A stretch of 25,592 nucleotides of DNA from a virus (lineage: Duplodnaviria > Heunggongvirae > Uroviricota > Caudoviricetes): IMG/VR virus record IMGVR_UViG_2547132281_000002, positions 1-25,592 of that record. The stretch is one strand, 5' to 3'. A model generated the notes under the pieces. It made no database searches, was not told the origin of the DNA, and worked only from the letters and a program-made list of their open reading frames with translations. Both the position numbers and the translations under genes were made by a program. This document shows positions 89-23,126 of the stretch, in pieces. Numbering within the stretch: position 1 is the stretch's first letter; every line of letters starts with the position of its first letter.

Positions 89-121
89 AAGCCCGCGATA
101 TTTTAAGCGGGCTTTTATTTT
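89..121 (+). terminator. Hairpin plus T-run, rho-independent terminator-like, at the left edge of the window
   Basis: Stem gcccgc (91-96) pairs with gcgggc (106-111) and is followed by ttttatttt. Read directly from the sequence, not folded computationally. Confidence 0.3.
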
Positions 122-701
122 AAACTTCAGGTATTACAGGCCACTCAATATCAGGTGCAGTTGATGTATCAACACGGTTCAGCAACACCCGATACTTTTT
201 CCAGGCTTCCAGCAATGAGGTTTCTTCCTCCGTTGCGATTTCCAGATCTACAGCATCCTGAAGTGGCGCAATATGCTCACTGGCTACCTGCATCAGGCTG
301 TTTTTTGTTTCTTCCGCCTCCCGGATCCGGAACAGTTTTTCTGCTTCTGCATCTTTCACCCAGGCTGTGCCGTTCCACTTCTGAAACTCCCCTTCCGGCG
401 ATAACCAGGTAACATTTTCCGGTAATGAGCCGAGTTCAGAAATAAATAATGCGTCGCCGGAAGCCACGTCATAAACCGTTTTACCCCGATGATCTTCAAC
501 GAGATGCCACGATGACTCATCACTGTTGAAAACAGCCACGAAGCCAGCCGGAATATCTGGCGGTGCAATATAGGTACTGTTTGCTGGCAGACCTGTATGA
601 GGCGGAATATATGCGTCACCTTCACCAATAAATTCATTAGTTCCGGCCAGCAGATTATAAATTTTTATGGTCCGTGGTTGTTCACTCATTCTGAATGCCA
701 T
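120..701 (-). CDS. tfa: Tail fiber assembly protein Tfa (lambda Tfa / DLP12 TfaD-like), 193 aa
   Basis: Translation [24 protein letters not shown]... matches lambda Tfa as I recall it. Its ATG overlaps the stop of the upstream stf fragment (TAATG), as in lambda stf-tfa. Confidence 0.9.
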
Positions 702-1885
702 TATGCAAGCCTCACAATGTAGTTAAATGCGATGTTTTTGACGGTGTTTTCCGCGTTACCAGCAGCGTTAACGGTGATGGTGTGTCCATGTGAGCCAATC
801 GCAACAGAGTGCGTATGAGCACCAATACCGACAGTATGTGCGTGAGCACCTGCAGATGCGGCTGTGCCGCTGACACTATGAGTGTGCGCTCCTGCAGCAC
901 TTGTATTCACACTGGCCGCAGACACTACCTTATGTACTGACCCATTTTGTGACCACTGGCTGACTGCTGATGCGCCTGTGACACTATGAGTATGGTTTCC
1001 GGCACTTGCGGCTGTACCGCTCACACTGTGCGTATGCGCCCCGGTGTTATTCGTGGATTTAGTGCCGTAATCAAACGACGATGTGGTTTTCGTCCCCAAA
1101 TCCGTACTGGATGCGCTGGCGCTGTGGGTGTGCGATTTAATGCCGTCCTGTTCCTGAGACAATACGGCACGACCACTGGCAGGTTTGCCCTTAATCGTCC
1201 AGCCACGCATATCAGGGATCACGCCTGACGGATAAGCGGCTGCAAGTTTCGGGTATGCAGATTTGTCAAAAGTCTGCCCCTGCATCAGGGCATAACCAGA
1301 CGGAACGGTATCTGATGGCCACGGGGTTGGTGCACCGACTGGGTAGCTTTCTGGTGGAAGATTTTTCGAGGTATAAACTTCTGCCCAGTCTTCCTCAAAA
1401 CCATAGCCATCTCTTGAGGAACGGTAGAACAGACCTCCATTTCTGTAATGTGCCTTCATCTGCAAGGTCCGGCAACTTCCGACTCCGGTATAGAAGTTAA
1501 CCAGAATATAGCTGTCGCCAGAGCGGGTGACATTGTAAGCGCCTGATTCGGCATTCCATGGAACGCCCCCATCCGCATCGGCATACGTATCCGTTGCCCT
1601 TCTGGCAAAAGCAGCCACATGCGCGGCGGTTAAAGTAATATCTTTGGAACCATCAAACTCAACACCAGAAACCAGTCTTGGCGTTTGCAGCTTTGTTGCT
1701 GTTAATGCATTACCGTTCAGACTTGCGGACAGTTTGGTTCCAATAACCAGTTCGCCGGTTGCGTTATCAATAGCAAACGGTCTTAATGTATTCCAGCCAC
1801 CATAAACATCACCTTGATTGGTAAGCAGCAGGTAAGTTTTAGCGCCATCATTACGCCATAATGCACCATACTCCCCACCTATCAT
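701..1885 (-). pseudogene. stf: C-terminal fragment of side tail fiber protein Stf (about 394 of roughly 774 codons), fused at a deletion junction
   Basis: Translation ends ...[31 protein letters not shown] with repeated [15 protein letters not shown] motifs, matching the lambda/Rac Stf C-terminus from memory. The N-terminal part is absent and the reading frame begins right at the Nu1 junction. Confidence 0.8.
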
Positions 1886-3282: not shown

Positions 3283-3567
3283 TTTGTCGCTCCATGCGCT
3301 TGCTCTTCATCTAGCGGTTAAAATATTACTTCAAATCTTTCTGTATGAAGATTTGAGCACGTTGGCCTTACATACATCTGTCGGTTGTATTTCCCTCCAG
3401 AATGCCAGCAGGACCGCACTTTGTTACACAACCAATACTATTAATTGAAAACATTCCTAATATTTGACATAAATCATCAACAAAACACAAAGAGGTCAGA
3501 CCAGATTGAAACGATAAAAACGATAATGCAAACTACGCGCCCTCGTATCACATGGAAGGTTTTACCA

Positions 3568-3978
3568 ATGGCTCAGGTTGCCATTTTTAAAGAAATATTC
3601 GATCAAGTGCGAAAAGATTTAAACTGTGAATTGTTTTATTCTGAACTAAAACGTCACAATGTCTCACATTATATTTACTATCTAGCCACAGATAATATTC
3701 ACATTGTGTTAGAAAACGATAACACTGTGTTAATAAAAGGACTTAAAAAGGTTGTAAATGTTAAATTCTCAAGAAATACGCATCTTATAGAAACGTCCTT
3801 TGATAGGTTGAAATCAAGAGAAATCACATTTCAGCAATACAGGGAAAATCTTGCTAAAGCAGGAGTTTTCCGATGGGTTACAAATATCCACGAACATAAA
3901 AGATATTACTATACCTTTGATAATTCATTACTATTTACTGAGAGCATTCAGAACACTACACAAATCTTTCCACGCTAA
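3568..3978 (+). CDS. ybcV: DUF1398-family protein, DLP12 YbcV-like, 136 aa from an internal ATG
   Basis: ...[58 protein letters not shown].... The ORF track extends it to 3445; I chose the ATG at 3568 to match the recalled YbcV length. Confidence 0.65.
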
Positions 3979-4268
3979 ATCATAACGTCCGGTTTCTTCC
4001 GTGTCAGCACCGGGGCGTTGGCATAATGCAATACGTGTACGCGCTAAACCCTGTGTGCATCGTTTTTAATTATTCCCGGACACTCCCGCAGAGAAGTTCC
4101 CCGTCAGGGCTGTGGACATAGTTAATCCGGGAATACAATGACGATTCATCGCACCTGACATACATTAATAAATATTAACAATATGAAATTTCAACTCATT
4201 GTTTAGGGTTTGTTTAATTTTCTACACATACGATTCTGCGAACTTCAAAAAGCATCGGGAATAACACC

Positions 4269-4562
4269 ATGAAAAAAATGCTACTCGCTACTGCGCTGGC
4301 CCTGCTTATTACAGGATGTGCTCAACAGACGTTTACTGTTCAAAACAAACAGACAGCAGTAGCACCAAAGGAAACCATCACCCATCATTTCTTCGTTTCT
4401 GGAATTGGGCAGAAGAAAACTGTCGATGCAGCCAAAATTTGTGGCGGCGCAGAAAATGTTGTTAAAACAGAAACCCAGCAAACATTCGTAAATGGATTGC
4501 TCGGTTTTATTACTTTAGGCATTTATACTCCGCTGGAAGCGCGTGTGTATTGCTCAAAATAA
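4269..4562 (+). CDS. bor: Bor lipoprotein (serum-resistance lysogenic-conversion protein), 97 aa
   Basis: MKKMLLATALALLITGCAQQTFTVQNK... with lipobox LITGC, matching lambda Bor from memory. Sits opposite Rz as in lambda. Confidence 0.9.
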   Translation: MKKMLLATALALLITGCAQQTFTVQNKQTAVAPKETITHHFFVSGIGQKKTVDAAKICGGAENVVKTETQQTFVNGLLGFITLGIYTPLEARVYCSK

Positions 4563-4593
4563 TTGCATGAGTTGCCCATCGATATGGTCAGCT

Positions 4594-5055
4594 CTATCTG
4601 CACTGCTCATTAATATACTTCTGGGTTCCTTCCAGTTGTTTTTGCATAGTGATCAGCCTCTCTCTGAGGGTGAAATAATCCCGTTCAGCGGTGTCTGCCA
4701 GTCGGGGGGAGGCTGCATTATCCACGCCGGAGGCCGTGGTGGCTTCACGCACTGACTGACAGACTGCTTTGATGTGCAACCGACGACGACCAGCGGCAAC
4801 ATCATCACGCAGAGCATCATTTTCAGCTTTCGCATCAGCTAACTCCTTCGTGTATTTTGCATCGAGCGCAGCAACATCACGCTGACGCATCTGCATGTCA
4901 GTAATTGCCGCGTTCGCTAGCTTCAGTTCTCTGGCATTTTTGTCGCGCTGGGCTTTGTAGGCGATTGCGTTATCACGGTAATGATTGACCGCCCATGACA
5001 GGCTGACGATGATGCAGATAATCAGAGCGGATATAATCGCGGTTACTCTGCTCAC
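4594..5055 (-). CDS. Rz: Spanin inner-membrane subunit Rz, 153 aa, GTG start
   Basis: (V/M)[67 protein letters not shown]... matches lambda Rz from memory. Confidence 0.9.
4653..4835 (-). CDS. Rz1: Spanin outer-membrane lipoprotein Rz1, embedded in the +1 frame of Rz, 60 aa
   Basis: [60 protein letters not shown] with lipobox VVGC and a proline-rich tail, matching lambda Rz1. Confidence 0.85.
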
Positions 5056-5549
5056 TGTTGCCCCCACAAACAGACTTCACGCTCAATCTCACGACGAGTC
5101 ATCAGGCCTTTCCATTGCTTACCGCCAGCGTATGTCCAGCGACGCAGCTGATCACATGCGCCTTTGATATCGCCCTGGTTTATTTTGCGAAGAAGCGTCG
5201 ATGTTCTAAAATTGCCAGCACCCACATTGTAAACGAATGAGTAAAGAGCGCCGCGCGTTGTTTCCGGTATATCGACTTTGATATACGGGTTAATTTGTCT
5301 GGCGACAGTGGCAAGGTCTTTATTCAAGAGTGCTTTGCATTCTGCTTTGGTATACGTTTTACCGAGCATGATGTCTTTTCCGGTGTGTCCGTGACATACA
5401 GTCCATACACCAACAATATCTTTGTATGGTATGTAGCTGACACCTTCCAGACCATCGTTACCACTTGGGCCAGTGATTAACACTGATGCTATAGCAATTG
5501 CTCCGCCACCAATAGCAGCAGCAACGGCTTTTCGTAATGATGGAGGCAT
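5052..5549 (-). CDS. R: SAR endolysin (phage 21 R-like lysozyme, DLP12 RrrD-like), 165 aa
   Basis: [44 protein letters not shown]... has an N-terminal Gly/Ala-rich signal-anchor-release segment followed by a lysozyme domain. Confidence 0.9.
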
Positions 5550-5764
5550 TATTCACCTCTCGCAGCCTTGCGCTTATCTTCTTTAATCTTGAAATAAAGG
5601 TTTGTCAGGTACGTCAGCAGGCCAAATACCAGGCTACCCAGCACACCTATTGCTGCCCACTGTGAGGGCGTGACTTTATCGAGCAGCTGTAAAAACCAGT
5701 AACCGGCACTACCTGCTGAGGTGCCATAGGCGACACCCGTTGTTAACTTATCCATGGATTTCAT
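5549..5764 (-). CDS. S: Pinholin, phage 21 S-like (DLP12 EssD-like), 71 aa, dual-start MKSMDK motif
   Basis: [71 protein letters not shown]. Stop overlaps the R start (TAATG). Confidence 0.85.
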
Positions 5765-6352
5765 AACCCCACCTCGCAGACAAAGCGGGTGTAAATTGAG
5801 GGAATACAACGTATCGCAAAAAAGCAGAAACGTAACAGACTCGGAGTCAGTGAATAACTCAGGTATTGAGTTATCAGCTAATATCGAGACTCAAAAAATG
5901 GAAAAACCAGCTCGACGGCGGGTTTAAGCTGTGTGACGAAGTAACCACTCTTAACAGCATAACCAATTTTTTACGTACGTAAACCACTGAATGATATTTA
6001 TGAGAATGCTACCGAGTGTTCAAAACTCCACCACAAATACATAAGAAAACCTCAACAAATAACCAATAAATAATTTCAGACGTTATTTTTAGTTGATTTA
6101 AATTAAACTGCCGAATTATAGAACCCCCATAAATAACAGCCATTAATATAAATTAGCTAATAGGTTTATTTTTGTTCAAATAAGAGCCATAAATAGGTTT
6201 CGATAGAAAAAGTTCAGATAAAAATAGAGATCTACTTCACAAATTAAATGAGAAACTAAAACTTACATCTTGAAATAATCACATTGATTAGATGAATATT
6301 TATCGCGCAGTGACATCATTTTTTAATAATAGTTCAAAAAAAAGGGCTCACG

Positions 6353-7435
6353 ATGAAAAAATTAACAGTGGCAATTTCTGCTGTAGCTGCATCAGTACTG
6401 ATGGCGATGTCTGCTCAGGCAGCTGAAATTTATAATAAAGACAGTAACAAGCTGGATCTGTACGGGAAAGTTAATGCTAAGCACTACTTCTCCTCTAATG
6501 ATGCAGATGATGGTGATACTACTTATGCCCGTCTTGGCTTCAAAGGTGAAACCCAAATCAACGATCAACTGACTGGTTTCGGTCAGTGGGAATATGAATT
6601 CAAAGGCAACCGCGCTGAATCTCAAGGTTCCTCCAAAGACAAAACCCGTCTTGCATTTGCAGGCCTGAAATTCGGTGACTACGGCTCAATCGATTACGGC
6701 CGTAACTACGGTGTAGCATACGACATCGGTGCGTGGACTGACGTTCTGCCAGAATTCGGTGGCGATACCTGGACCCAAACAGATGTATTCATGACTGGTC
6801 GCACCACAGGTGTTGCAACTTATCGTAACAACGACTTCTTTGGTCTGGTTGATGGCCTGAACTTTGCAGCTCAGTATCAGGGCAAAAATGACCGAAATGA
6901 AGTAACTGAAGCTAATGGCGATGGTTTCGGTTTCTCAACTACTTATGAGTATGAAGGATTCGGCGTGGGTGCAACCTATGCTAAATCTGATCGCACTAAT
7001 AATCAGGTTATCTACGGTAACAACGGTCTGAATGCTTCTGGTCAAAATGCTGAAGTATGGGCAGCTGGTCTGAAATATGATGCGAACAACATCTATCTGG
7101 CCACCACCTATTCTGAAACCCAGAACATGACTGTTTTTGGTAATAACCATATTGCCAACAAAGCACAAAACTTCGAAGCTGTTGCACAATATCAGTTCGA
7201 CTTCGGCCTGCGTCCATCCGTTGCTTACCTGCATTCTAAAGGAAAAGACTTGGGTGTTTGGGGTGATCAGGACCTGGTTGAATATGTTGATGTAGGTGCA
7301 ACCTATTACTTCAACAAAAATATGTCCACTTTTGTTGACTACAAAATCAACCTGATTGATAAGAGCGATTTCACGAAAGCATCTGGCGTTGCTACCGATG
7401 ATATCGTTGCTGTAGGTATGGTTTACCAGTTCTAA
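6353..7435 (+). CDS. nmpC: Outer-membrane general porin, NmpC/OmpD/Lc family, apparently intact, 360 aa
   Basis: [23 protein letters not shown] signal peptide, then [17 protein letters not shown]... and a C-terminal ...VAVGMVYQF. Lies between Q and the lysis genes on the opposite strand, as in DLP12. Confidence 0.85.
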
Positions 7436-7623: not shown

Positions 7624-8007
7624 TTAATTAGAGTTATTAACAACGATATCCATCTCTAACCGGATATCTAATGCCATTAACATCCCTTCAATTATGCCCT
7701 CAGCCTTCTGTAACCTTTTCCCGATATAACCATCAGAGCAGCAATGCTTACCTGCCAGTGACATGAATGTCATACCGACTACATAATAATCTACTAATAA
7801 ATCGTGCAAATCGCTGTTGTTCTTTTTCAGACGGGCCATGCACCCGCAAATGATCATCGCGTCATCGTCACAACATTGCGGGCGAGATTTTACTTTTGAA
7901 GTAATTAATCCCTTAAAACCGGCGGCAATGGACGACCAGGTCACATCTTCATGATTATTAGCCGCCCACGCTCCCCAACGCTCAAGAACCATCTGAATAT
8001 CACGCAT
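7624..8007 (-). CDS. quuD: Late-gene antiterminator Q (DLP12 QuuD-like), 127 aa
   Basis: [62 protein letters not shown].... Last gene of the nin-Q block. An alternative upstream ATG lies at 8022. Confidence 0.8.
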
Positions 8008-8092
8008 CAACTTACTCCACAAAAATCAGACCAGAACGCCAATTACAAGCAAAAATCAACGAAACAGTATTAGTTGATTGTTATCTCTGACT

Positions 8093-8592: not shown

Positions 8593-8879
8593 GCCTTAAT
8601 AACCCCCTCTTTCAGCCAGATAACCTGTGTTCTCGCCATACCTTCCAGCGCGCATTCTTTTGCATATGCAGCATCGACAAAATGTGTGCGGCGGTCGATT
8701 TCGTCGTGGCAGGCAGAACATGCAATGGTGGCAATCAGGTCTGGCGGTTTGGTACCGGTGCCGCACAATCCAGTCAGCCGGATATGTGCCAGTACAGACG
8801 TTTCAGGGTTGCCATTACATACGCCAGGGATTCTTACCTGGCATTCCCGACTACGCGCTGCTTTTCTCAAATCAGCCAT
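8589..8879 (-). CDS. ybcO: YbcO-like nuclease (DUF1364, Cys-rich), 96 aa
   Basis: [64 protein letters not shown].... Overlaps the rusA start (ATGA). Confidence 0.8.
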
Positions 8880-9042
8880 GATTCCTCCTTGCTGCCAGTC
8901 GCAACCATTTTTTATCAACCAGGCTGGCGGTATATCCGAGCAGTGTTGGTATTTCGGAAGGCTTCAGCTCCGGTTTACGCTTACGACGATCTGGTACTCT
9001 GTAGATGTGTCCGTTCATGACACGAATAAGCGGTGTAGCCAT
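8872..9042 (-). CDS. ninE: NinE-like protein, 56 aa, below the ORF-track length cutoff
   Basis: Manual translation gives [56 protein letters not shown]. Start overlaps the ybcN stop (TAATG); stop overlaps the ybcO start. Confidence 0.6.
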   Translation of the reverse strand: MATPLIRVMNGHIYRVPDRRKRKPELKPSEIPTLLGYTASLVDKKWLRLAARRNHG

Positions 9043-9497
9043 TACGCCTCCTGCTTGTCGCGGAGCAGCTGGAACTCGCAGCTCTGCGGAATAGTCAGGT
9101 GGCAGCCAATATTCACCGCCCAGGCTTCAACCTTACACAGGAAGACATACATCTCTCCGGTATCAAGATCGGAGGTATGGCGTAACGACTGGATAGTGGT
9201 GATATCACCGGTTACGACATCAACCAGGTCTTTGGTTTCATAACCGAGATATGTGTGTTTGAGAGCATCTTTTACCCAAGCTGGAGTAGCGAACGTTTTA
9301 CCCCTGCTGATGAGGTATTCACTGATTTCGCTGTACCACATGTGGCTGAGTGCATTCTGGGAAAGACTGCGTTTCTCACGCCACGGTTTAAGCACCATGC
9401 GAAAGCATTTGCCCTCCTCCAGATAAGGCTGGATCTGCCGACCGATAGCGGTGAAGTTACCGCGATGTAATTTGATGCCATCTTGTGGGAGATTCAC
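9042..9497 (-). CDS. ybcN: NinB-family recombination protein (DLP12 YbcN-like), 151 aa
   Basis: [62 protein letters not shown]... matches YbcN from memory. Confidence 0.85.
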
Positions 9498-9684
9498 GCT
9501 TCACCTCCGCAGAGGTCAAACGCTGGATACAATATATCGCAGGTGCATTTCTGCATCTGTGGAGGGAGAAGAGAGTTTGGATTGTGTGTGCGCATAAACG
9601 TCCCCGTTTAGCGCAGAAGTCACCGGAGTTGTTCAGGCTCCGATGACATGATTATGGCGAGTTGATTATCGCAAATCAAAGGTT

Positions 9685-10041: not shown

Positions 10042-10502
10042 GCTTTAGCCCTTCTTAGTAAATAGTGTGTAGGGCGACTGAAGGACCGAGTTTATGCTTT
10101 TTCGCATTGCTTTCAGTTAGTACACCGGTATCGCACCGGAAACAATCCTACGGCAAATTGGTTGTCTGACCTCTCGGTTTTTCGTGCATTAACCGATACC
10201 CACTACAGTCTCGGCGAAAGCTGCACACCCCCAGGGTGTACTGGTAGCACTCGGCACAGCCTAGCACGCCACTTTCTTCTCACTATCCAGTCTAATTTTA
10301 TCCCCTAGTCAGACACTCAGATGTAGTGCTCCGCAGCGGCATGCGGGGGAATACAAAAACTCGGACAAAATTGGGCCCTCCTTTTTGAATCACTCGCGGG
10401 GATGTAGTTATTAATACATGGAAAAAGATCTGTTTTCAAATCCAACATTATATGGTTTCAATACCACGGGGTGGCTATGTGTTTCTCATTGTTAATTGGA
10501 AT
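10042..10502 (-). other. ORF-free 460-bp segment between two same-strand genes; candidate long structured 5' leader or ncRNA
   Basis: No ORF of 60 codons or more in this interval in the supplied track, and only short ORFs found by manual reading. GC content is higher than in the flanking AT-rich genes. Several local hairpins (cacccUGGgggtg; ccggtGCGATaccgg; ucgguu...aaccga) and a sigma70-like promoter on the minus strand. Confidence 0.35.
10411..10439 (-). promoter_or_regulatory. Sigma70-like promoter (TTGAAA-N17-TATTAA) on the minus strand inside the ORF-free segment
   Basis: -35 TTGAAA at 10439-10434, 17-nt spacer, -10 TATTAA at 10416-10411. Predicted start near 10404, about 360 nt upstream of the 118-aa ORF. 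Confidence 0.3.
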
Positions 10503-10826
10503 CTACTGTAATCGATCCGAACGTAAATGCGGCAAAACTCGACTCCACTTATCATCCTGCCACGGCCGGAATTTTACATGTGCCGTTTCTCTGGCAAGGA
10601 TTGCCTGTGCCTTATTGAGTATCTGGGGATATTCTTGCTCGATAGAAGTGAAGCGACCAGCTTCACGATGCTCCGCAACCTGAAGAAGAGGAGTAACGTT
10701 CTGGTAGGTAATTAACATCACATTCCCTGCTCGCCATAACCAGGCGAGTGTGCAAAGTTCGTTATCAGTGAATTGTTTTGTGATTGGGTATTGTTGAACT
10801 GCTAGAACGAGAACGCCAGCATCCAT
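10503..10826 (-). CDS. Uncharacterised 107-aa protein
   Basis: MDAGVLVLAVQQYPITKQFTDNELCTLAWLWRAGNVMLITYQNVTPLLQVAEHREAGRFTSIEQEY.... No family recognised and the RBS is weak. Occupies the slot that holds ybcL/ybcM in DLP12. Confidence 0.45.
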   Translation of the reverse strand: MDAGVLVLAVQQYPITKQFTDNELCTLAWLWRAGNVMLITYQNVTPLLQVAEHREAGRFTSIEQEYPQILNKAQAILARETAHVKFRPWQDDKWSRVLPHLRSDRLQ

Positions 10827-10937
10827 TGGCAGTCTCTATAGTAAAACCATAGCTCAGGACGCTTCGTTCAGGATAGATAATTTTATTGTACTTACCTAAC
10901 TTTCTTACTATAGCACGGTTGAAAAAGTGATTATTAC

Positions 10938-12464
10938 TCAAAAATAAACCTCACCATCAACCATATATTTGAGAGTACTTATCGCCTGCTGGGCGGATAT
11001 TGTTTTCATTAAAGGATAGTGTTTAAAAACAATGCCATTCATAAAATAGATATCACAGGTTTTATTATCTGTATTGATTATGATTTTTTCGAATGTTTTA
11101 TAGGCAAGTGTACGACATAGCTCTCGCCCATTTTTACTGTTTAAGTCAATAGCATGAAAATCACCAAGTGAACTCACCGCTTTACTCTTCAAAGTTTTTA
11201 ATGATACAGAAGCCCTTCGTAATTCCTTATCTAATACTCTGATTTTTTCTGCTATAGCGGTAACTTCAGGCGCAACAGATAATGCAGCAATTAAATTATT
11301 AATTTTCATCTGGAGCTCAATAATTTTCAACTCTAAAGTTTCATTAGCATCTTTCTTGTTTTCAACTGGTTGGATTTTACTACAATTAAAAAGCAACTCA
11401 TTAATGATATTATAATCAACCAAATCTCTCTTTATTGATGGCCTGTCACATCGATGCAGTCTTCTCATCGGACAAACATAATAGCCATGCAAACTTCCAG
11501 ATACCGCATGAACAATCATGGTATTACCACAAGCCTCGCACTTCATAACTGTTCGAAGTAGATTTATCAACATAGGATTTTTGCTACTATTGCTAATACC
11601 AAAAGGTGCCAACCGAATTTCCTGTACAGCGTAAAACAAATCATCTGATATGACTCTGGGATAATAGCCAGCGATTTCACTTATTCCTTTACCTCTTGCA
11701 CGATATGAAGGTACGCATATACCTATCAGAGCTTTATTCGCTAATAATTTTTCAATTACAGAAGGTCCCCATGCACTTTCTTTTCCTGAGAAATTCTTTA
11801 CAGCATGATCATTTAAATACTTGGCTATTGCATTCAATGAGCGCCTTTCCATCCTGAGTTTAAAAATTAGCTCAATAGTTTTCACCCTGTCGGGGTCTGG
11901 AACAAAAGCCGTTCTTTTGTCATCTAAGGAGAGCCATCTCGGACAAGACGCCGTCATAATCGTACCTGATTCCAGTGCATCCTGCCGTTTTTTCTTCCAT
12001 GATAATTTAACCCGACTTGACTTTATCTCGCTTTCTTCATTTGCCCTTTGTGCTATAAGTATGGCTTTTATTAATGAATATGGCTCATTCAAAGAGTCAA
12101 TATTATAGACTGTATTGTCGCAAAGAGTTATAACATCAATACCGTGATTCAAAATCAATTTCAGACGTTCAATCGCTTCACCGACTTTTTCTCTTGAAAG
12201 TCTGTCCAGACTTTCAACTAACAATGTAGTTCCTGGCAATATATAACCATGCTCTATAGCATCTAAAAATTCCGAAAAAGCTCCTGATTGTGCATGCTTT
12301 CCTTTGAATGCACTTAATCCTAAATCTTCATATGTTATGGTATCAAGATAATAATCACTATTTACCTTTAACCATTCAGCAATAAGTCTTCTCTGTCGGT
12401 TTAATGAGTCGCCAGACATCTGACCTGGTGATGAAAATCGCATATATGCTATGGCTTTTTTCAT
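10938..12464 (-). CDS. ybcK: Large serine recombinase (DLP12 YbcK-like), 508 aa
   Basis: N-terminal resolvase-like MKKAIAYMRFSSPGQMSGDSLNRQRRLIAEW... with catalytic Ser in the YxRxSS context. Central recombinase region, a Cys-rich zinc-ribbon-like stretch (CEACGN...CPMRRLHRC) and a coiled-coil tail. Strongly AT-rich. Confidence 0.85.
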   Translation of the reverse strand: MKKAIAYMRFSSPGQMSGDSLNRQRRLIAEWLKVNSDYYLDTITYEDLGLSAFKGKHAQSGAFSEFLDAIEHGYILPGTTLLVESLDRLSREKVGEAIERLKLILNHGIDVITLCDNTVYNIDSLNEPYSLIKAILIAQRANEESEIKSSRVKLSWKKKRQDALESGTIMTASCPRWLSLDDKRTAFVPDPDRVKTIELIFKLRMERRSLNAIAKYLNDHAVKNFSGKESAWGPSVIEKLLANKALIGICVPSYRARGKGISEIAGYYPRVISDDLFYAVQEIRLAPFGISNSSKNPMLINLLRTVMKCEACGNTMIVHAVSGSLHGYYVCPMRRLHRCDRPSIKRDLVDYNIINELLFNCSKIQPVENKKDANETLELKIIELQMKINNLIAALSVAPEVTAIAEKIRVLDKELRRASVSLKTLKSKAVSSLGDFHAIDLNSKNGRELCRTLAYKTFEKIIINTDNKTCDIYFMNGIVFKHYPLMKTISAQQAISTLKYMVDGEVYF

Positions 12465-12647
12465 GGTGACACCTGCTAACGTATGCTTTTATAAACCTTA
12501 GTGGTGGGATATAATTTTTGTTTAATTTTTATTTAAAAAGACAATTAAGGTCACATTATCTTGAATATACAACAATAATCGTATTGCAATTTTCTTACGC
12601 CATAATCTTGAAAGCACAAAAGAATACATAAAAAAATAAAGACATTA

Positions 12648-12689
12648 ACAAAAAGCATAAAACGAGGCTCATATAAATATAAGAGCCTC
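12648..12689 (-). terminator. Rho-independent terminator downstream of emrE
   Basis: On the minus strand, stem gaggctc/gagcctc with a 12-nt AT loop followed by GUUUUAUGCUUUU. Confidence 0.5.
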
Positions 12690-12720
12690 CATATTTTAGT
12701 CGTTTAGAAACAAATTATTT

Positions 12721-13053
12721 TTAATGTGGTGTGCTTCGTGACAATAAATTAATAACCAACACACCGGCACAAATCAACATCATGCCTATAATGGCTGGCA
12801 GGTCCAGCCGTTGGCCGAAAAGTCCCCATGACAGTAAGCTAATCAGGACAATACCGACTCCTGACCAGATAGCATAAGCAATCCCTGTAGGAATATAAGC
12901 CAGCGTCTGAGCTAATAACCAGAATGATGCACAATAACAAATAATTGTACCAACAGATGGCCATAACCGTGTAAAACCTTCTGAAAACTTCATTAAGGTT
13001 GTACCAATGACCTCTGCAAGTATTGCACCACCAAGATAAATATAAGGGTTCAT
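12721..13053 (-). CDS. emrE: Small multidrug resistance (SMR) efflux transporter EmrE, 110 aa
   Basis: MNPYIYLGGAILAEVIGTTLMKFSEGFTRLWPSVGTIICYCASFWLLAQTLAYIPTGIAYAIWSGVGIVLISLLSWG... matches EmrE from memory, including the conserved membrane Glu in the first helix. Confidence 0.9.
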   Translation of the reverse strand: MNPYIYLGGAILAEVIGTTLMKFSEGFTRLWPSVGTIICYCASFWLLAQTLAYIPTGIAYAIWSGVGIVLISLLSWGLFGQRLDLPAIIGMMLICAGVLVINLLSRSTPH

Positions 13054-13120
13054 AGAATATTCTTTCCTGTTCAAACTGGAGAGAATTGTACTACAGTTTG
13101 AACTCAACTCACCTGTTTCA

Positions 13121-13423
13121 TCATTGTGTACCCATTGATGTTCTTTTATATACCCTCAATACCCGTTTCATCGCGGCACTCTGGCGACACTCCTTAAAAA
13201 TCAGATTCGTGCTCACCTTTCCTTCCCGTTCTTCTCTGGTAGCAAACCGGTAATACACCGTTCGCCAGACCTTACCTTCGATAGCCAGAAGACCTGCCCG
13301 TGCCATTTTAGCCGCAGCCTGATTTATGCTGGTTACCGTTGCGCCTGTTACCGCGGCAACGTCCTGCGCACAGAATTTCTTATGAGTCCCCAGGTAATGA
13401 ATAATTGCCTCTTTGCCCGTCAT
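13121..13423 (-). CDS. ren: Ren (lambda Rex-exclusion escape protein), 100 aa
   Basis: MTGKEAIIHYLGTHKKFCAQDVAAVTGATVTSINQAAAKMARAGLLAIEGKVWRTVYYRFATREEREGK... matches lambda Ren. Overlaps the P stop (ATGA). Confidence 0.85.
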   Translation of the reverse strand: MTGKEAIIHYLGTHKKFCAQDVAAVTGATVTSINQAAAKMARAGLLAIEGKVWRTVYYRFATREEREGKVSTNLIFKECRQSAAMKRVLRVYKRTSMGTQ

Positions 13424-14121
13424 ACCCTTGCTCCTTTCAGCCCAAACTTAGCTTTGATTTCTGCGATCTTCGCCAGAGCCTGTGCACGATTTAGAGGTCT
13501 ACCGCCCATGACAGGAAGTTGTTTTACTGGTTCAGGTATAGCCTCACCACGGTTAATTCGTGCGGTCATACAGGACAGTTCATCGGCAGCCTTGCGCCGT
13601 AATTCCGCGTCAGTCAACGCATTGGCCCGCATGTTCTGATACAGGTTGGTAACCAGCCAGTAGTGCGCGTTTGATTTCCACGGATAAGACTCTGCATCCG
13701 GATACAGCCCGCGCTTCCGGCAATACTCGTAAACCATATCAACCAGCTCGCTGGCGTTTGGCAGCCCGGCGGTAACAGATGCTTCTTCCCGGCACCAGGC
13801 GACAAACTGCCCGGGTGATGGCAGGAATGGTCGATTCTGCCGACGGGCTACGCGCATTCCAGCGTTAACCTGTTCCATTGTGGTGATCCCGTTTTCCCGA
13901 AAAGCCAGCACCCACTGGCGGCGGATTTCGTTCAGTTCATTCTGGTCACGGTTAGCCAGGCTCGCCGGGAAAGTTGCCAGTAACTGGCTGAACACACCGT
14001 TGATGATCTGCGCTACCTGCTGTACCTGCGGCTTTTCGTCGTACTGTTCCGGCATGTTGTTGGCGATCCGACGCATCTGCTCACGGTCAAAGTTAACCAT
14101 CTGTGCGGCGATGTTTTTCAT
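13420..14121 (-). CDS. P: Replication protein P (DnaB helicase loader), 233 aa
   Basis: MKNIAAQMVNFDREQMRRIANNMPEQYDEKPQVQQVAQIINGVFSQLLATFPASLANRDQNELNEIRRQW... is near-identical to lambda P as recalled. Confidence 0.95.
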   Translation of the reverse strand: MKNIAAQMVNFDREQMRRIANNMPEQYDEKPQVQQVAQIINGVFSQLLATFPASLANRDQNELNEIRRQWVLAFRENGITTMEQVNAGMRVARRQNRPFLPSPGQFVAWCREEASVTAGLPNASELVDMVYEYCRKRGLYPDAESYPWKSNAHYWLVTNLYQNMRANALTDAELRRKAADELSCMTARINRGEAIPEPVKQLPVMGGRPLNRAQALAKIAEIKAKFGLKGARV

Positions 14122-15047
14122 AAATCCACCCCGTAAATCCAGTCAGTGTTTGTCAGGTCGAGTTTTGGTTTGCTGGCTATCATGCCTGCCTGTTGCTTGT
14201 TACGGTTGATTTCGAGTTGGGTCCACTTGTCGCGGAGTTTGGCCGGACTTAGCACGTTACCGGACCAGAAGTTGTCCTGGCATGCCCAGCGGAAAAGCAC
14301 GCACATGTCGCGGTGGTTACGTCCGTCACGTTCACGCATCAGGCGGATATCGTTAGCCCACCCTGCAAAATTCGGTTTTCTGGCTGATGGTGCGATGGTC
14401 TTCACCATGTCAAACATCCACTCTGCGGCGGTCAGGTCTTCTGCTGTCCCCCACTTGCTGCCGCTCTGAATTGCAGCATCTGGTTTCACCACAGGAAGAT
14501 CGTTTTCTGGTTGGTCAGAGGATTCGCCAGAATTCTCGGACGAAAAAGGTTTTATATTGTCTTTTGTTAGTTTGTCTTTTGTGTTTACCTGATTCGGGTA
14601 AACGCCTTTACCTGATTTGGGTAAACTTTTCTTACCTGATTCAGGTAAATTTACCTCTTTCAGGTAAACTTTATTTTTCTTACCTGATTCGGGTAATGTT
14701 GACCATTCACTGACCACATTATTAATACCGATATTCCGCCCGCTCTGAATCAAAATCCCACGCTTTACCAGAACACTTTTTGCAGCAGAACACTTGTGCG
14801 GTAATATCCCGGTCAATCCGGACAGTTGCTCGTTGCTCACCCAATCCAGTTTTTTATTAAAGCCATATGTTTTGCGCATGACAGCCAGGAAGACCAGAAG
14901 CTGGTGCTGTGTTAATCCGGCCAGCATCACAGCTTCCAGCAACTCATTTGCAATGCGCGTATAACCATCATCGAGATCTGCCACGCGCGGCTCCTTTTGT
15001 GCCGCATCCGGCACTGGAAAATTGAATATCTCAGCAGTGTTTGCCAT
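14118..15047 (-). CDS. O: Replication initiator O-like protein (non-lambda specificity), 309 aa from the RBS-preceded ATG
   Basis: MANTAEIFNFPVPDAAQKEPRVADLDDGYTRIANELLEAV... shares the lambda O N-terminal motif VADLDDGY. Repeated LPESGKK peptides are encoded by the iterons. GGGAGG lies 5 nt before the ATG at 15047. Overlaps the P start (ATGA). Confidence 0.8.
   Translation of the reverse strand: MANTAEIFNFPVPDAAQKEPRVADLDDGYTRIANELLEAVMLAGLTQHQLLVFLAVMRKTYGFNKKLDWVSNEQLSGLTGILPHKCSAAKSVLVKRGILIQSGRNIGINNVVSEWSTLPESGKKNKVYLKEVNLPESGKKSLPKSGKGVYPNQVNTKDKLTKDNIKPFSSENSGESSDQPENDLPVVKPDAAIQSGSKWGTAEDLTAAEWMFDMVKTIAPSARKPNFAGWANDIRLMRERDGRNHRDMCVLFRWACQDNFWSGNVLSPAKLRDKWTQLEINRNKQQAGMIASKPKLDLTNTDWIYGVDL
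14584..14698. repeat. ori: Replication origin: five about 19-bp iterons (consensus TTACCTGATTCGGGTAA) inside the O gene, flanked by an AT-rich tract
   Basis: tttacctgattcgggtaaac, tttacctgatttgggtaaac, cttacctgattcaggtaaat, ttacctctttcaggtaaac and cttacctgattcgggtaatg, each an internal inverted repeat. AT-rich tract at 14540-14583. Confidence 0.75.
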
Positions 15048-15133
15048 AATTCCTCCCGCAATGAGTGTGTTACGATTTGCACCTGAAAGTCGGTTCTGTT
15101 CCAGCAGACCGGCTTTCGCCATTTCTGAACCTG

Positions 15134-15673
15134 TCATATCGCCCCCAGCATGGTAGTAACCATCGCCATCAATGGACCAGCCAGATCTGGGTCCACACGA
15201 AACATCGATACAATACCTTCACTAATTTCCTTCAGTTTCTGGTGGCGTGGTGCGTTGAGAATGACAGCCTGTTTTGCCTCACTGAGTTCCTTTTCCATTT
15301 CAGCCAACCTGGCCATGAAGCTATCCTGCTCAACCAGGTAACCGCGATATTCCAGCGGTAGTACCGCCAGAATTGCCGGGGTCAGTTCACGCACGTTATT
15401 TCGGTATTTTTCAGAATCGAATTTGTTATCGAGGAAGCGGAACAGCTTCTGGCGTGCACGGCTGACATCATCAGGGAAATCGATGGTGCCGCCGCCCTGC
15501 TCCCGATACTCATTCACAATGAGTGTGGCAACGACATCCTGATTATCTACAGCCGACCAGGCGCGGACGGCATCACGGATTTTTTCGTGGCCTGGCACCT
15601 GTTTTGTTTGAGAACGATTTATCACCGCAGTCGGGCTAAATCCGCTAGTCTGTTGGTATGGAAGTGGTTGCAT
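15134..15673 (-). CDS. ydaT: YdaT-like protein (Rac-type ydaS/ydaT module) at the cII position, 179 aa
   Basis: ...VNEYREQGGGTIDFPDD...VRELTPAILAVLPLEYRG... resembles Rac YdaT as I recall it (EEYLRQGGGE...IPAILAILPRELR). RBS AAGGAG upstream. Confidence 0.55.
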   Translation of the reverse strand: MQPLPYQQTSGFSPTAVINRSQTKQVPGHEKIRDAVRAWSAVDNQDVVATLIVNEYREQGGGTIDFPDDVSRARQKLFRFLDNKFDSEKYRNNVRELTPAILAVLPLEYRGYLVEQDSFMARLAEMEKELSEAKQAVILNAPRHQKLKEISEGIVSMFRVDPDLAGPLMAMVTTMLGAI

Positions 15674-15742: not shown

Positions 15743-15973
15743 TTAAGCTGCGTTCTTTTCGGTGTGTGGAAACAACTTCGGAAGATCCGGGCGAATCTGG
15801 TATGCCTTCACTACTCCACCAGTAGCCGTAACAATGCTGCCGACATGTTCAGGGGATACCTTTGCTTTGTTGTGAAGCCACTTATAGACGGCCTGCTGTG
15901 AAACTTCGCAAGCAGCGCCCAGTTTCTTTTGTGAACCAACGATATTGATCGCTGTTTTGATAGCTGGGTTCAT
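15743..15973 (-). CDS. cro: Cro-like HTH regulator (YdaS/Cro family), 76 aa
   Basis: MNPAIKTAINIVGSQKKLGAACEVSQQAVYKWLHNKAKVSPEHV... has a helix-turn-helix and is divergent from the repressor. GGAGG lies 7 nt before the ATG. Confidence 0.7.
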   Translation of the reverse strand: MNPAIKTAINIVGSQKKLGAACEVSQQAVYKWLHNKAKVSPEHVGSIVTATGGVVKAYQIRPDLPKLFPHTEKNAA

Positions 15974-16077: not shown

Positions 16078-16767
16078 ATGAAAACAACACTCTCAGAAAG
16101 ACTTAAAGAAGCCAGATTAGCGCGAGGCCTTACACAAAAGGCGCTTGGGGATTTGGTCGGGGTTAGCCAGGCTGCTATTCAGAAAATCGAAACAGGGAAA
16201 GCTAATCAAACAACTAAAATCGTGGAGATCGCGAACGCTTTGGGTGTGCGCGCAGAATGGTTATCTTCTGGCGTTGGAAATATGTCAGACAGTACAGTGC
16301 AACCAATACAATCAACTGTCAGCCATTCCAAATACTTCAAGATTGACGTTCTTGATATAGAAGTCAGTGCTGGGCCGGGAGTCATCAACCGTGAGTTTGT
16401 AGAAGTTCTACGCTCGGTTGAGTACTCGTTTGACGATGCTCGTCACATGTTCGATGGTAGGAAGGCGGAAAATATCCGCATCATTAACGTGCGTGGTGAC
16501 AGCATGTCAGGAACGATCGAACCAGGTGATCTGCTGTTCGTTGATATCACAGTTAAATCTTTCGACGGTGATGGTATCTATGCGTTTCTGTACGACGACA
16601 CAGCCCATGTAAAGCGCCTGCAAATGATGAAGGATAAGCTGCTGGTCATCTCTGATAACAAAAGCTACTCACCGTGGGACCCGATCGAGAAAGACGAGAT
16701 GAACCGGGTGTTCATCTTCGGTAAGGTTATTGGGAGCATGCCGCAGACATATAGGAAGCATGGGTAG
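16078..16767 (+). CDS. cI: CI-type prophage repressor: N-terminal HTH (XRE) plus C-terminal LexA-like S24 autopeptidase, 229 aa from the internal ATG
   Basis: MKTTLSERLKEARLARGLTQKALGDLVGVSQAAIQKIETGK... (HTH), then ...INVRGDSMSGTIEPGDLLFVD...HVKRLQ... (Ser/Lys dyad motifs). The ORF track's upstream start at 16012 overlaps the operators. Confidence 0.85.
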   Translation: MKTTLSERLKEARLARGLTQKALGDLVGVSQAAIQKIETGKANQTTKIVEIANALGVRAEWLSSGVGNMSDSTVQPIQSTVSHSKYFKIDVLDIEVSAGPGVINREFVEVLRSVEYSFDDARHMFDGRKAENIRIINVRGDSMSGTIEPGDLLFVDITVKSFDGDGIYAFLYDDTAHVKRLQMMKDKLLVISDNKSYSPWDPIEKDEMNRVFIFGKVIGSMPQTYRKHG

Positions 16768-20090: not shown

Positions 20091-20143
20091 TATTCGCATT
20101 CACCCTCAAGCGTATTAACCAACAATTCAGGGATTAATGGAAG

Positions 20144-20365
20144 ATGGCAGACATCATTGATTCAGCATCAGAAATTGAAGAATTACAGCGCAACACAGCA
20201 ATAAAAATGCGCCGCCTGAACCACCAGACTATATCTGCCACTCATTGTTGTGAGTGTGGCGATCCGATAGATGAACGAAGACGCCTGGTCGTTCAGGGTT
20301 GTCGGACTTGTGCAAGTTGCCAGGAAGATCTGGAGCTTATCAGTAAACAGAGAGGTTCGAAGTGA
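20144..20365 (+). CDS. TraR/DksA-family C4 zinc-finger protein, 73 aa
   Basis: MADIIDSASEIEELQRNTAIKMRRLNHQTISATHCCECGDPIDERRRLVVQGCRTCASCQEDLELISKQRGSK has a coiled N-terminus and a CxxC-N17-CxxC finger. Confidence 0.75.
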   Translation: MADIIDSASEIEELQRNTAIKMRRLNHQTISATHCCECGDPIDERRRLVVQGCRTCASCQEDLELISKQRGSK

Positions 20366-20664
20366 GCGAAATTAACTCTCAGGCACTGCGTGAAGCGGCA
20401 GAGCAGGCAATGCATGACGACTGGGGATTTGACGCAGACCTTTTCCATGAATTGGTAACACCATCGATTGTGCTGGAACTGCTGGATGAGCGGGAAAGAA
20501 ACCAGCAATACATCAAACGCCGCGACCAGGAGAACGAGGAAATTGCGCTAACGGTAGGAAAGCTGCGCGTTGAGCTGGAAGCAGCAAAATCAAAACTCAA
20601 CGAGCAGCGTGAATATTACGAAGGTGTTATCTCGGATGGAAGTAAGCGTATTGCTGAACTGTAG
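20362..20664 (+). CDS. Ead/Ea22-like protein, 100 aa, GTG start overlapping the upstream stop
   Basis: (V/M)SEINSQALREAAEQAMHDDWGFDADLFHELVTPSIVLELLDERERNQQYIKRRDQENEEIALTVGKLRVELEAAKSKLNEQREYYEG..., recalled as similar to the Ea22-like proteins of lambdoid and Stx phages. Confidence 0.65.
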   Translation: MSEINSQALREAAEQAMHDDWGFDADLFHELVTPSIVLELLDERERNQQYIKRRDQENEEIALTVGKLRVELEAAKSKLNEQREYYEGVISDGSKRIAEL

Positions 20665-20914
20665 GCCTAGGTTGAGTGTACAAGATTTGCATACGTAAGA
20701 GCAAAAGACAAGGGAGAATTGATCAGAGTTATTACCTGCCAACCAACGGGATATTACGCTTACGTACCATGTAACTAGGAATCCTTGAAGTGGCAGCCTA
20801 ACTGTGGATACACTGAAATGGCGATTTGGTAACATGTTTCGCACAAGGCTGTTACTACGCTTAGAGATAATCAGTCATGATTAAATGCTTTGTAAAAAGT
20901 AAAAGGAAATTACA

Positions 20915-21529
20915 ATGAAAAAATCAACACTAATTTTAGGGCTTACGTTAATTGTCTCATCTCAAATACCATCGGCAATGGCAAAAAATGAATCAAAACT
21001 TTGGGTTGTTGTTGATCGAACGGAAAGACATACCTGCCCTTCAAGTAAATGTGGAGTGGCTGGGAAACTATTTTTCAGGGAAGGCGTAGATTTTCTAGAA
21101 AAAAAAGGTGAATGGGTTCGTATAACTGAGCCATATTCAGCCTCATGTGTGGGAGGGGAAAGCGAATATATTAAAGAAGGTAATAAATCCTGCACAAGAA
21201 AAAACGGAATCGTTAATGGCAAGTTTTCAGAATGGGTTAAACTTAGTGATCTTAGCAGTGAAAGGCCACCAGATCCTGCTGAAAATGCGAGCAGAAATGA
21301 TACCTTAATCAAAGGATCTGATGACTACCGTATATACAAAAAAGAGTTTTCTTCGGCAGCTAGGAAGTTAATAAGTGAAGGTGTCTGCACGGAGAGCGAT
21401 TTTAAGGAAGTTGGAGGGTGGATGGCATCAAGCAATAAGGGTGAAAACATCTATTTCACATATTGCGGAGGAATGACGTTGTCGAACAGAATATATCTAG
21501 ACGTTAAAAGTGGAAAGACTTTTAGATAA
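20915..21529 (+). CDS. Uncharacterised secreted/periplasmic Cys-rich protein, 204 aa (moron)
   Basis: Signal peptide MKKSTLILGLTLIVSSQIPSAMA with predicted cleavage before KNES. At least eight Cys in the mature part and no lipobox. AT-rich, with a good RBS (AAAAGGAAA). No family recognised. Confidence 0.6.
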   Translation: MKKSTLILGLTLIVSSQIPSAMAKNESKLWVVVDRTERHTCPSSKCGVAGKLFFREGVDFLEKKGEWVRITEPYSASCVGGESEYIKEGNKSCTRKNGIVNGKFSEWVKLSDLSSERPPDPAENASRNDTLIKGSDDYRIYKKEFSSAARKLISEGVCTESDFKEVGGWMASSNKGENIYFTYCGGMTLSNRIYLDVKSGKTFR

Positions 21530-21822
21530 TATGATATTACCAATGACAGCATTAATTTAATGCCTCCATAGAATTATCTCTAGGAAGTAAGTATAAGAAA
21601 AGTCCGCACAATGAGCTGCTGCGGGCTTTGTGTTATTCGCCATATTTTATGAAGCAAATACGACACTATAGATAATTAAGCGTTACTGGTTGTCGATTCC
21701 TCACTCATTCCTGCTGATGGCTGTCTTCTTGTATGTGTCATTGAAGGGTAATATCGCGTAAAAAGATACCGGAAGTATCCGCGCCGCCATGATTGTCTTT
21801 CTCCTGATGCAGGAAAAGCAGA

Positions 21823-22189: not shown

Positions 22190-22618
22190 ATGAAATTAGA
22201 CCAGCAATATCTAAAAGATCTACTTATCGCATTCGAAAAAACTTATGGCCCTGACACGATGCTTAGTGAACTAGAGGATAATGGCTTTAATAGATATGAC
22301 CAAAATTTTATTTTCCATATGCGATTATTATGTGACTACGAATTAATAGTTAGGGTTGATGGAAAACCTGGGTTCGGTCATATAATGTCCAACGAGTTAG
22401 GGGAAGGTGTTGAATATAGTTGGATCGAAGTACCACTGAGGTTGACAGCAAGAGGGCATGATTTTATTGCTGACTTACGTCAAAAGGAGGTCTGGCAAGC
22501 TATAAAAACAAACTTTAAGGATGAGGGGATTAGTACTCTTATGAGTGTTTCAAAATCACTAGCAAAAGGCTTTGCAAGAAAAAAAATAAAAGATATTACA
22601 GGAATAGATATTGAATAA
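22190..22618 (+). CDS. Uncharacterised 142-aa protein (AT-rich moron with its own RBS and terminator)
   Basis: MKLDQQYLKDLLIAFEKTYGPDTMLSELEDNGFNRYDQNFIFHMRLLCDYELIVRVDGKPGFGHIMSNELGEGVEYSWIEVPLRLTARGHDFIADLRQ.... Strong RBS and a downstream terminator. Family not recognised with confidence. Confidence 0.6.
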   Translation: MKLDQQYLKDLLIAFEKTYGPDTMLSELEDNGFNRYDQNFIFHMRLLCDYELIVRVDGKPGFGHIMSNELGEGVEYSWIEVPLRLTARGHDFIADLRQKEVWQAIKTNFKDEGISTLMSVSKSLAKGFARKKIKDITGIDIE

Positions 22619-22664
22619 TTCTTAGCATAAAGCAACTACTGCCTTTGGTGAAAATTATATCTGA

Positions 22665-22688
22665 ACTCGCTACGGCGAGTTTTTTTTA
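22665..22688 (+). terminator. Rho-independent terminator after the 142-aa gene
   Basis: Stem actcgc/gcgagt with loop tacg followed by tttttttt. Confidence 0.65.
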
Positions 22689-22868
22689 TGGAGATGATAA
22701 ATGCACTTCCGAGTCACAGGTGAATAGAATGGAGAACCATTCAACAGAGTTATCGAAGCCGAGAACATCAGCGACTGCTATGACCACTGGATGCTGTGGG
22801 CGCAGATAGCACATGCAGACGTAACCAATATTCGAATTGAAGAACTGAAAGAACACCAAGCCGCCTGA

Positions 22869-22907: not shown

Positions 22908-23126
22908 ATGTACTTGACACTTCAGGAGTGGAACGCTCGCCAGCGACGCCCAAGAAGCCTTGAAACAGTTCGTCGATGGGTGCGCGAATGCAGGATATTC
23001 CCTCCTCCGGTTAAGGATGGAAGAGAATATCTGTTCCACGAATCAGCGGTAAAGGTTGACTTAAATCGACCAGTAACAGGTAGCCTTTTGAAGAGGATCA
23101 GAAATGGGAAGAAGGCGAAGTCATGA
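22908..23126 (+). CDS. xis: Excisionase Xis, 72 aa
   Basis: MYLTLQEWNARQRRPRSLETVRRWVRECRIFPPPVKDGREYLFHESAVKVDLNRPVTGSLLKRIRNGKKAKS matches lambda Xis. The 3' end overlaps the int start. Confidence 0.95.
   Translation: MYLTLQEWNARQRRPRSLETVRRWVRECRIFPPPVKDGREYLFHESAVKVDLNRPVTGSLLKRIRNGKKAKS

Follow-up and report, generated by a model that had tools for sequence, protein, structure and literature searches.

The window analysed here (the whole stretch of 25,592 nucleotides, positions 1 to 25,592 of the IMG/VR virus record IMGVR_UViG_2547132281_000002) is a lambdoid prophage, which matches the chromosome of Escherichia coli E7476 at 100% and the record of phage Turner at 99%. Its rightward early operon runs on the minus strand in the order O, P, ren, emrE, an AT-rich leader and ybcK, and every gene from the cro-like gene through Q is co-oriented. 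We centre on the block at 10929-13130, in which the multidrug efflux gene emrE and ybcK, the gene for a 508-aa large serine recombinase (LSR), sit together between ren and the nin genes; a preliminary description, made from the letters alone, had placed them there, and the open reading frames (ORFs), coordinates and domains agree with it. The block is the already-annotated emrE-ylcJ-ybcK accessory module of DLP12-type lambdoid phages (the three names are those of RefSeq). It is probably two-gene, moron-type cargo of the hypervariable O-P-ren/nin slot, exchanged by mosaic recombination and not moved by YbcK.

Composition and anatomy of the block

The block has a guanine-plus-cytosine (GC) content of 35.6%, as compared with 45.5% for the whole window, and is the lowest in GC among all 2.2-kb stretches of the latter (mean 45.1%, standard deviation 3.7%), lying about 2.6 standard deviations under the mean. 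The earlier impression of an AT-rich, compositionally distinct block was thus well founded. By part, the GC content amounts to 35.9% in ybcK, 27.0% in the leader, 41.7% in emrE, 49.2% in ren and 54.3% in P. Further, shorter AT-rich islands were found at about 3400-4000, 5800-6400, 20600-21600 and 22200-22800, so that AT-rich cargo is not peculiar to the emrE-ybcK spot.

Two separable units make up the block. One is emrE (12721-13053, minus strand), whose separable module spans 12713-13130, with its own terminator hairpin further downstream; the other, the 1.8-kb ybcK unit, joins the leader to the gene (10938-12464, minus strand). The core of the latter (10929-12712, minus strand; the gene, 248 bp upstream and 9 bp downstream) is common to all contexts seen. 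The leader (12465-12720, minus strand; 256 bp) holds the small ORF annotated as ylcJ.

EmrE is a 110-aa transporter of the small multidrug resistance (SMR) type, exporting multiple drugs and quaternary cations; it scores 239.6 bits against the curated EmrE model NCBIfam NF042984 (cut-off 226) over residues 1-110 of 110, and E = 5e-35 against Pfam Multi_Drug_Res. The ORF as called extends over 12721-13107 from an upstream TTG, but the true start is the ATG at 13053. For this reason the extent first given to the block (10938-13110) holds for the ORFs it encloses, whereas its end at 13110 takes in about 55 nt of leader.

YbcK, a large serine recombinase kept intact

By its catalytic domain, its recombinase and zinc-ribbon domains, and its coiled coil and overall fold, YbcK is a large serine recombinase. 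Pfam recognises Resolvase (E = 8e-19), Recombinase and Zn_ribbon_recom, the latter two above their cut-offs, and PHROGs places the protein in phrog_95 ('integrase'). Across 15 homologues, down to 41% identity, the catalytic residues R9, S11 (the nucleophile), D87, R88 and R91 are invariant, as are the zinc-ribbon cysteines C309, C312, C331 and C339. The AlphaFold model (predicted local distance difference test, pLDDT, 79) comprises the catalytic domain, the long helix E, the recombinase domain, the zinc ribbon, coiled-coil helices (346-428) and an extra C-terminal alpha/beta domain (~444-507). With this model, Foldseek recovered the full-length SPbeta, PhiC31 and Bxb1 integrases from the PDB (E 4e-18 to 4e-13), and its top matches also include the C-terminal region of the Listeria LI integrase (E 4e-18 to 2e-10 over all four). 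At the level of sequence, the YbcK family profile gave a weak match to SPbeta SprA in the PDB, and a single YbcK sequence found nothing among PDB sequences.

The ratio of non-synonymous to synonymous substitution (dN/dS) in ybcK is 0.06-0.12, for alleles with dS up to 0.18, and as judged from these alleles YbcK is intact and under strong purifying selection, not decaying. Over its 3' third (10938-11300), this ybcK allele reaches only some 91% identity with those of K-12 and O157, as compared with about 97% for the whole gene, which indicates intragenic allele mosaicism. No match for YbcK was obtained among the PADLOC defence models. Literature searches on ybcK returned no functional study (Rho-terminator work and omics lists only), and those combining serine recombinases with lambdoid phages or emrE found nothing relevant.

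Distribution and co-linearity in Escherichia coli

Among 5426 complete E. coli genomes, 1425 have the ybcK core, and 1399 of these retain 80% or more of it. The core also occurs in 12 phage records (Turner, 4A7, 4C10, Perceval, D2, 1W, 3W and several PhiR phages); no ybcK was found in true plasmids, as both near-identical matches of the plasmid search are chromosome-sized records. The phage allele of emrE (at least 95%) was detected in 1407 of the complete genomes, a number near that of the ybcK carriers, and a 90-95% allele is the sole one in 2284. In every place where the phage allele was found, it lay downstream of ren and was linked to ybcK, with order and orientation unchanged. In E. coli HS (L002 in our numbering of loci, 4483-6342) a prophage remnant with the order emrE-ybcL-ybcM lies between yedF and fliE; it carries the 90-95% allele and is without ybcK.

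Co-linearity was followed in a set of 80 IMG/VR loci, the upstream end being uncut in 74. An unbroken same-strand match from ybcK through emrE to ren was recovered in 73 of these 74, the exception (L147) having an IS1 within the leader. The order and orientation ren-emrE-ylcJ-ybcK were constant in all annotated genome loci that were opened. The block was not met in the other orientation among the 80 IMG/VR loci, nor ybcK outside the ren-nin slot in the 74 uncut ones or the sampled E. coli genome loci, and the latter offered no case of host DNA beside ybcK. In homologous prophages the emrE-ybcK unit is thus essentially a stable, co-linear block, and the recombinase-driven cassette put forward in the preliminary description, for which alternative junctions were to be expected, fails on that count.

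The edges of the block and its slot

On the ren side, the junction zone spans 13130-13178, and block-less lambdoid phages become homologous to the window again at 13148-13178. The last ~10 ren codons (13121-~13157) differ from those of block-less phages (...RVYKRTSMGTQ as opposed to ...AFYRGNFQ in L001), which puts the proximal junction within the 3' end of ren; the emrE-only module of HS ends at the window equivalent of 13130. The distal junction zone, in which phages diverge from the window, extends over 10521-10929. Divergence was registered at 10929 (K-12 type, followed by ybcL-ybcM), 10887, 10872 (O157 type), 10720/10726 (4A7 type, followed by an esterase), 10601-10668, 10521-10537, or not at all. 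These six or more break positions over about 400 bp point to ordinary lambdoid mosaicism, since a site-specific recombinase would give a single crossover.

Two sibling phages, the RSHH22 prophage (L001) and phage IdasGreatGrand (L007), share both flanks with the window and have other genes in the ren-ybcN slot. They bear out the view of the block as accessory DNA, foreign in composition and no part of a universal lambdoid backbone, as does the occurrence of emrE without ybcK in at least 2284 genomes. We considered both as empty sites and rejected them, as they carry replacement cargo. The stretch 9001-9680 of the window is common to all contexts. IdasGreatGrand has a full-length P22AR_C/Ant-like gene (202 aa), of which the window keeps a 3' fragment (10503-10826, minus strand; 107 aa), which implies that the 5' part of this gene was replaced when the block joined here. 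Between HS and K-12 the ybcK indel measures ~2.06 kb, its flanks are 9% different and the joint is not clean. Hence the comparison with prophages lacking the block, suggested at the outset as a way to define an empty site, yielded replacements only: a precise one was found neither among the siblings nor in HS as compared with K-12.

Repeats at the block edges were sought over 10400-13500 and in the whole window, and similarity between the flanks by low-stringency blastn and tblastx of flank against flank, in the window and five other contexts. The direct and inverted matches recovered at the edges are chance-level, AT-rich ones, and no flanking partial gene duplications were seen in these six contexts; short repeats thus did not appear beyond chance at 10830-10940 and 13050-13180. 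A 72-bp match between the flanks (71% identity) in the 4A7-type context was discarded, as it lies in terminator-like spacers. Comparison by eye gave no dyad-symmetric ends at 10929/12712, and no long inverted repeats occur in the window. Similarly, no attP, attL or attR attachment (att) sites were found at the edges of the block or of its units, although LSR att sites share little sequence, so that their absence at this level is not final.

Relatives of YbcK in other genera

Homologues with 40-61% identity to YbcK were encountered in Atlantibacter, Yersinia, Pantoea, Erwinia, Ewingella, Citrobacter and Kluyvera, all of them in prophage cargo slots. Some lie in the nin region and are followed by dinI and DUF1367 (L016, L019, L100), and one directly follows the replication gene P (L034). 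Another set, of 50-59% identity (L012, L014, L096, L098, L021, L022, L023), forms the terminal prophage gene after tail-fibre and tail-fibre-assembly genes, with host DNA alongside (ssrA/smpB, lepA, the purB side). Three Ewingella genomes have in common the LSR and a 67-aa ORF, and diverge exactly past the stop codon of the latter. Genes of the SOS response and DNA-damage tolerance recur as neighbours: dinI (L016, L019, L100), umuDC (L020, L021, L103-L105), SRAP (L020, L023) and an S24 peptidase (L096).

In four relatives the LSR and its cargo lie between diverged (76-92%) direct repeats. In L016 these are copies of the 5' 60 codons of DUF1367 (7652-7851 and 10633-10831), in L034 of the 3' part of the replication gene P (9281-9657 and 12216-12592) and in L035 of the 5' part of a 126-aa gene (9273-9519 and 16149-16394); in L025 they occupy 8621-8996 and 20129-20503. 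Such repeats could be recombination scars or target-restoring insertions. As proof of insertion they are weakened by L100, which has the same LSR-dinI-DUF1367 order without a repeat, so that the repeat of L016 looks like a recombination scar. In Pantoea, a 1.8-kb unit (9778-11583 in L024/L025; 9780-11583 in L034) is 94% identical between unrelated contexts. It consists of a 223-bp leader, the LSR gene and a terminator hairpin, the same anatomy as that of the E. coli ybcK core at 10929-12712.

How the module may move

Under the reading that we favour, of moron-type cargo passed on by mosaic recombination, the module would spread by homologous recombination in its P/ren and ybcN flanks, with occasional illegitimate joints. 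YbcK would take no part in moving it; its site-specific recombination would be directed at a target that the window either lacks or does not let us recognise. Several points weigh against this reading. An intact recombinase under purifying selection must act on some DNA, and its substrate was not found in the searches of the window. The limits of the ybcK unit are tight, 9 bp past its own stop codon and 8 bp past that of emrE; the LSR and cargo of four relatives are enclosed by the diverged direct repeats described above; and the Pantoea unit, shared by unrelated contexts, would also fit a self-contained mobile unit. Moreover, our survey comprised about 60 rows and 80 loci of 1425 genomes, and rare alternative junctions could have been missed. 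We therefore concede a small chance that YbcK has a role in moving something, rarely including this block.

The preliminary description had pictured a nested integrative element. In such an element YbcK, acting on att sites that bound the block, would integrate and excise either emrE-ybcK or ybcK together with its leader. The recombinase gene does lie at the edge of an AT-rich insert, the 1.8-kb unit is tightly limited, relatives lie with their cargo between diverged partial copies of an adjacent phage gene (L016, L034, L035, L025), and a 94%-identical unit recurs in unrelated Pantoea contexts. We nevertheless hold such an element to be very unlikely, given that terminal repeats or dyad ends are lacking at 10929/12712 and at 10830-10940/13050-13180, that the distal edge is spread over about 400 bp and not set by one crossover, that block-less siblings hold replacement DNA and no precise empty site, that slot and orientation are always the same, and that L100 repeats the gene order of L016 without its flanking repeat. 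Inversion or excision of the block by the recombinase, also proposed earlier, is at odds with the single orientation, the lack of inverted repeats and the lack of a precise joint. A related and more general possibility is that YbcK-type recombinases, with their leaders of about 220-250 bp, are self-contained units that move themselves from one cargo slot to another among the temperate phages that infect Enterobacterales, sometimes taking adjacent cargo along, or serve as conditional second integrases. On that view, the diverged partial copies of genes on either side of some relatives would be what is left of insertions into phage genes that restored their target; we rate the whole possibility as unlikely.

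A second phage integrase, likewise suggested in the preliminary description, would insert the phage at an alternative attB whenever the site of the tyrosine integrase is unavailable. In fold and domains YbcK is like bona fide phage integrases (it falls in phrog_95), its gene is under purifying selection, and the 50-59% homologues stand last in prophages beside host DNA (ssrA/smpB in Atlantibacter; before lepA in Erwinia), an integrase-like place. However, we saw no prophage permuted at ybcK, and the sampled E. coli loci have neither host DNA next to ybcK nor a break in its leader or 3' flank. The carriers own a tyrosine integrase (the complete phage 4A7 contains, alongside emrE-ybcK, both int and xis as well as a replacement icd fragment), and the relatives face the host junction by either end (L023 as opposed to L098) and occur mid-genome in nin regions. 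Cargo fits this variable facing and these mid-genome positions better than a fixed int-attP arrangement does. We consider a second integrase quite improbable. Similar doubt attaches to a recombinase that acts in trans, as a switch or in inter-phage competition, and whose site of inversion, excision or cutting would belong to the host, to another prophage or to a competing phage. In favour of it, the gene is intact and conserved, the searches brought up no substrate in cis, the slots are those usual for defence or conversion cargo, and the relatives have SIR2, dinI, umuDC and SRAP as neighbours. Yet this idea, arrived at purely by elimination, received neither a PADLOC match nor support in the literature searched, and the window is devoid of long inverted repeats. 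Least probable of all, and indeed hardly credible, is the reading of ybcK as the non-functional, passively carried leftover of an integration long past. It is true that ybcK of K-12 has no assigned function and is silenced by Rho; against this stand the low dN/dS (0.06-0.12, with dS up to 0.18), the core kept to at least 80% in 1399 of 1425 genomes, the invariant catalytic and zinc residues, and the retention of ybcK in phage records.

Leader, terminators and expression

Just 3' of emrE, an intrinsic-terminator-like hairpin (GGAGGCUC...GAGCCUC, then a U-rich tail; 12660-12697, minus strand) was predicted to fold with z = -2.56, an equal stability being reached in 1 of 200 shuffles. A hairpin upstream of emrE was not more stable than shuffled sequence. 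In K-12, the untranslated ybcK leader contains the Rho/NusG-dependent terminator tybcK (PMC4150792). Promoter-like sites were no commoner in either unit than in shuffled sequence, and the Rfam search of 10300-13600 matched no RNA element. With two terminators ahead of it in the rightward early operon, that of emrE and a Rho-dependent one, ybcK would for the most part not be expressed in the lysogen, and read-through would require phage antitermination. EmrE would act as a lysogenic-conversion protein, providing the lysogen with proton-coupled efflux of cationic biocides.

Both the small ylcJ ORF and the 67-aa ORF by the Ewingella homologues are putative candidates for a recombination directionality factor, a class too diverse to be recognised by sequence. 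In the DLP12-type locus L005, a perfect 13-bp inverted repeat (AAAATACGTGACA ... TGTCACGTATTTT, 24-bp spacer; ~5685-5735) is situated ~200 bp downstream of ybcK and upstream of ybcL; it is restricted to the K-12-type context and could be an operator or another protein-binding site.

The prophage around the block

Upstream of the block, the minus-strand operon comprises the cro-like gene (15743-15973), a gene at the YdaT/cII position (listed between the cro-like gene and O), O (14118-15137), P (13420-14121) and ren (13121-13423), which encodes a 100-aa Ren-like exclusion protein (PHROG phrog_142). Within O, three ~22-nt direct repeats (TTACCTGATTCGGGTAA core; 14580-14696) are spaced by 47-48 bp, and are the expected lambdoid origin iterons. 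Downstream, small ORFs separate the P22AR_C fragment from the ybcN/ninB-type gene (9042-9497, minus strand), the conserved distal anchor of the cargo slot, which is followed by ybcO, rusA and Q (7624-8022), all on the minus strand.

The region at 5800-7435, which separates Q from the lysis genes, is a further cargo insert rich in AT and comparable to nmpC of DLP12: a stretch of 29-34% GC precedes a porin gene (6353-7435, plus strand) that runs against the direction of the operon. Only ~2.7 kb lie between the lysis genes (Rz, 4594-5067; lysozyme, 5052-5549) and tail-fibre and tail-fibre-assembly genes (120-1885, minus strand). This short distance suggests that head and tail morphogenesis genes are missing and that the prophage is defective, although its early region is 99% identical to that of Turner. 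The prophage has its own lambda-type tyrosine integrase (23104-24174, plus strand), which adjoins a host pectinesterase gene (24309-25592).

Comparison with known systems

The closest counterpart is the emrE-ylcJ-ybcK set of DLP12 in K-12, which agrees in its genes, their order and their orientation downstream of ren, and belongs to a locus that reads argU-tRNA/intD ... ren'-emrE-ylcJ-ybcK-ybcL-ybcM-ybcN-ninE-ybcO-rusA-quuD. Nucleotide identity amounts to 97.3% between the ybcK core and that of K-12 MG1655, and to 97.3% between ren'-emrE-ybcK and the DLP12-type locus. Unlike DLP12, the prophage described here lies by the host pectinesterase gene, with a lambda-type integrase, and not at argU; it has full O, P and ren genes, and the P22AR_C fragment follows ybcK where DLP12 has ybcL-ybcM.

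The moron concept reportedly stems from Hendrix and Juhala's work on HK97/HK022, with lom and bor of lambda as examples. The block resembles lambdoid morons in its foreign composition, its position between backbone genes, its own terminator, its patchy occurrence among similar phages and its joints at gene boundaries; it differs in its unusual cargo, as one gene of the pair encodes a site-specific recombinase of full length. Like SPbeta SprA, PhiC31 Int, Bxb1 Int and the LI integrase, YbcK combines a serine catalytic domain with a recombinase domain, a zinc ribbon and a coiled coil. Its identity to them in structural alignments is 13-19%, however, and it has the extra C-terminal alpha/beta domain, while its gene is mid-genome, with no attP/attB pair identified, in a phage that has another integrase.

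With Mu Gin, P1 Cin and e14 Pin, YbcK shares the condition of a serine recombinase carried by a temperate phage besides its integration system, and some of its relatives directly follow tail-fibre and tail-fibre-assembly genes. Gin, Cin and Pin, on the other hand, are ~190 aa long and act on an invertible segment bounded by inverted repeats, whereas YbcK is large and its block has no such repeats; a Gin/Pin-type invertible segment was rejected on this account and by virtue of the single orientation in 80 loci. The large serine recombinases TnpX and TndX mobilise small elements that carry a resistance gene (Tn4451 and Tn5397); these have defined ends with a repeated crossover dinucleotide and occur at many sites. 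For emrE-ybcK we saw neither defined ends with a repeated dinucleotide nor multiple sites.

Significance

The emrE efflux gene, known from the cryptic K-12 prophage, travels as a fixed module on viable, plaque-forming lambdoid phages too, and its carriage by phages is independent of a dedicated mobile element. About a quarter of the complete E. coli genomes harbour YbcK, an intact LSR under strong purifying selection. Its target, if found, would explain why the gene is retained by lambdoid phages that already have Int/Xis, and could add an enterobacterial integrase to the genome-engineering toolbox.

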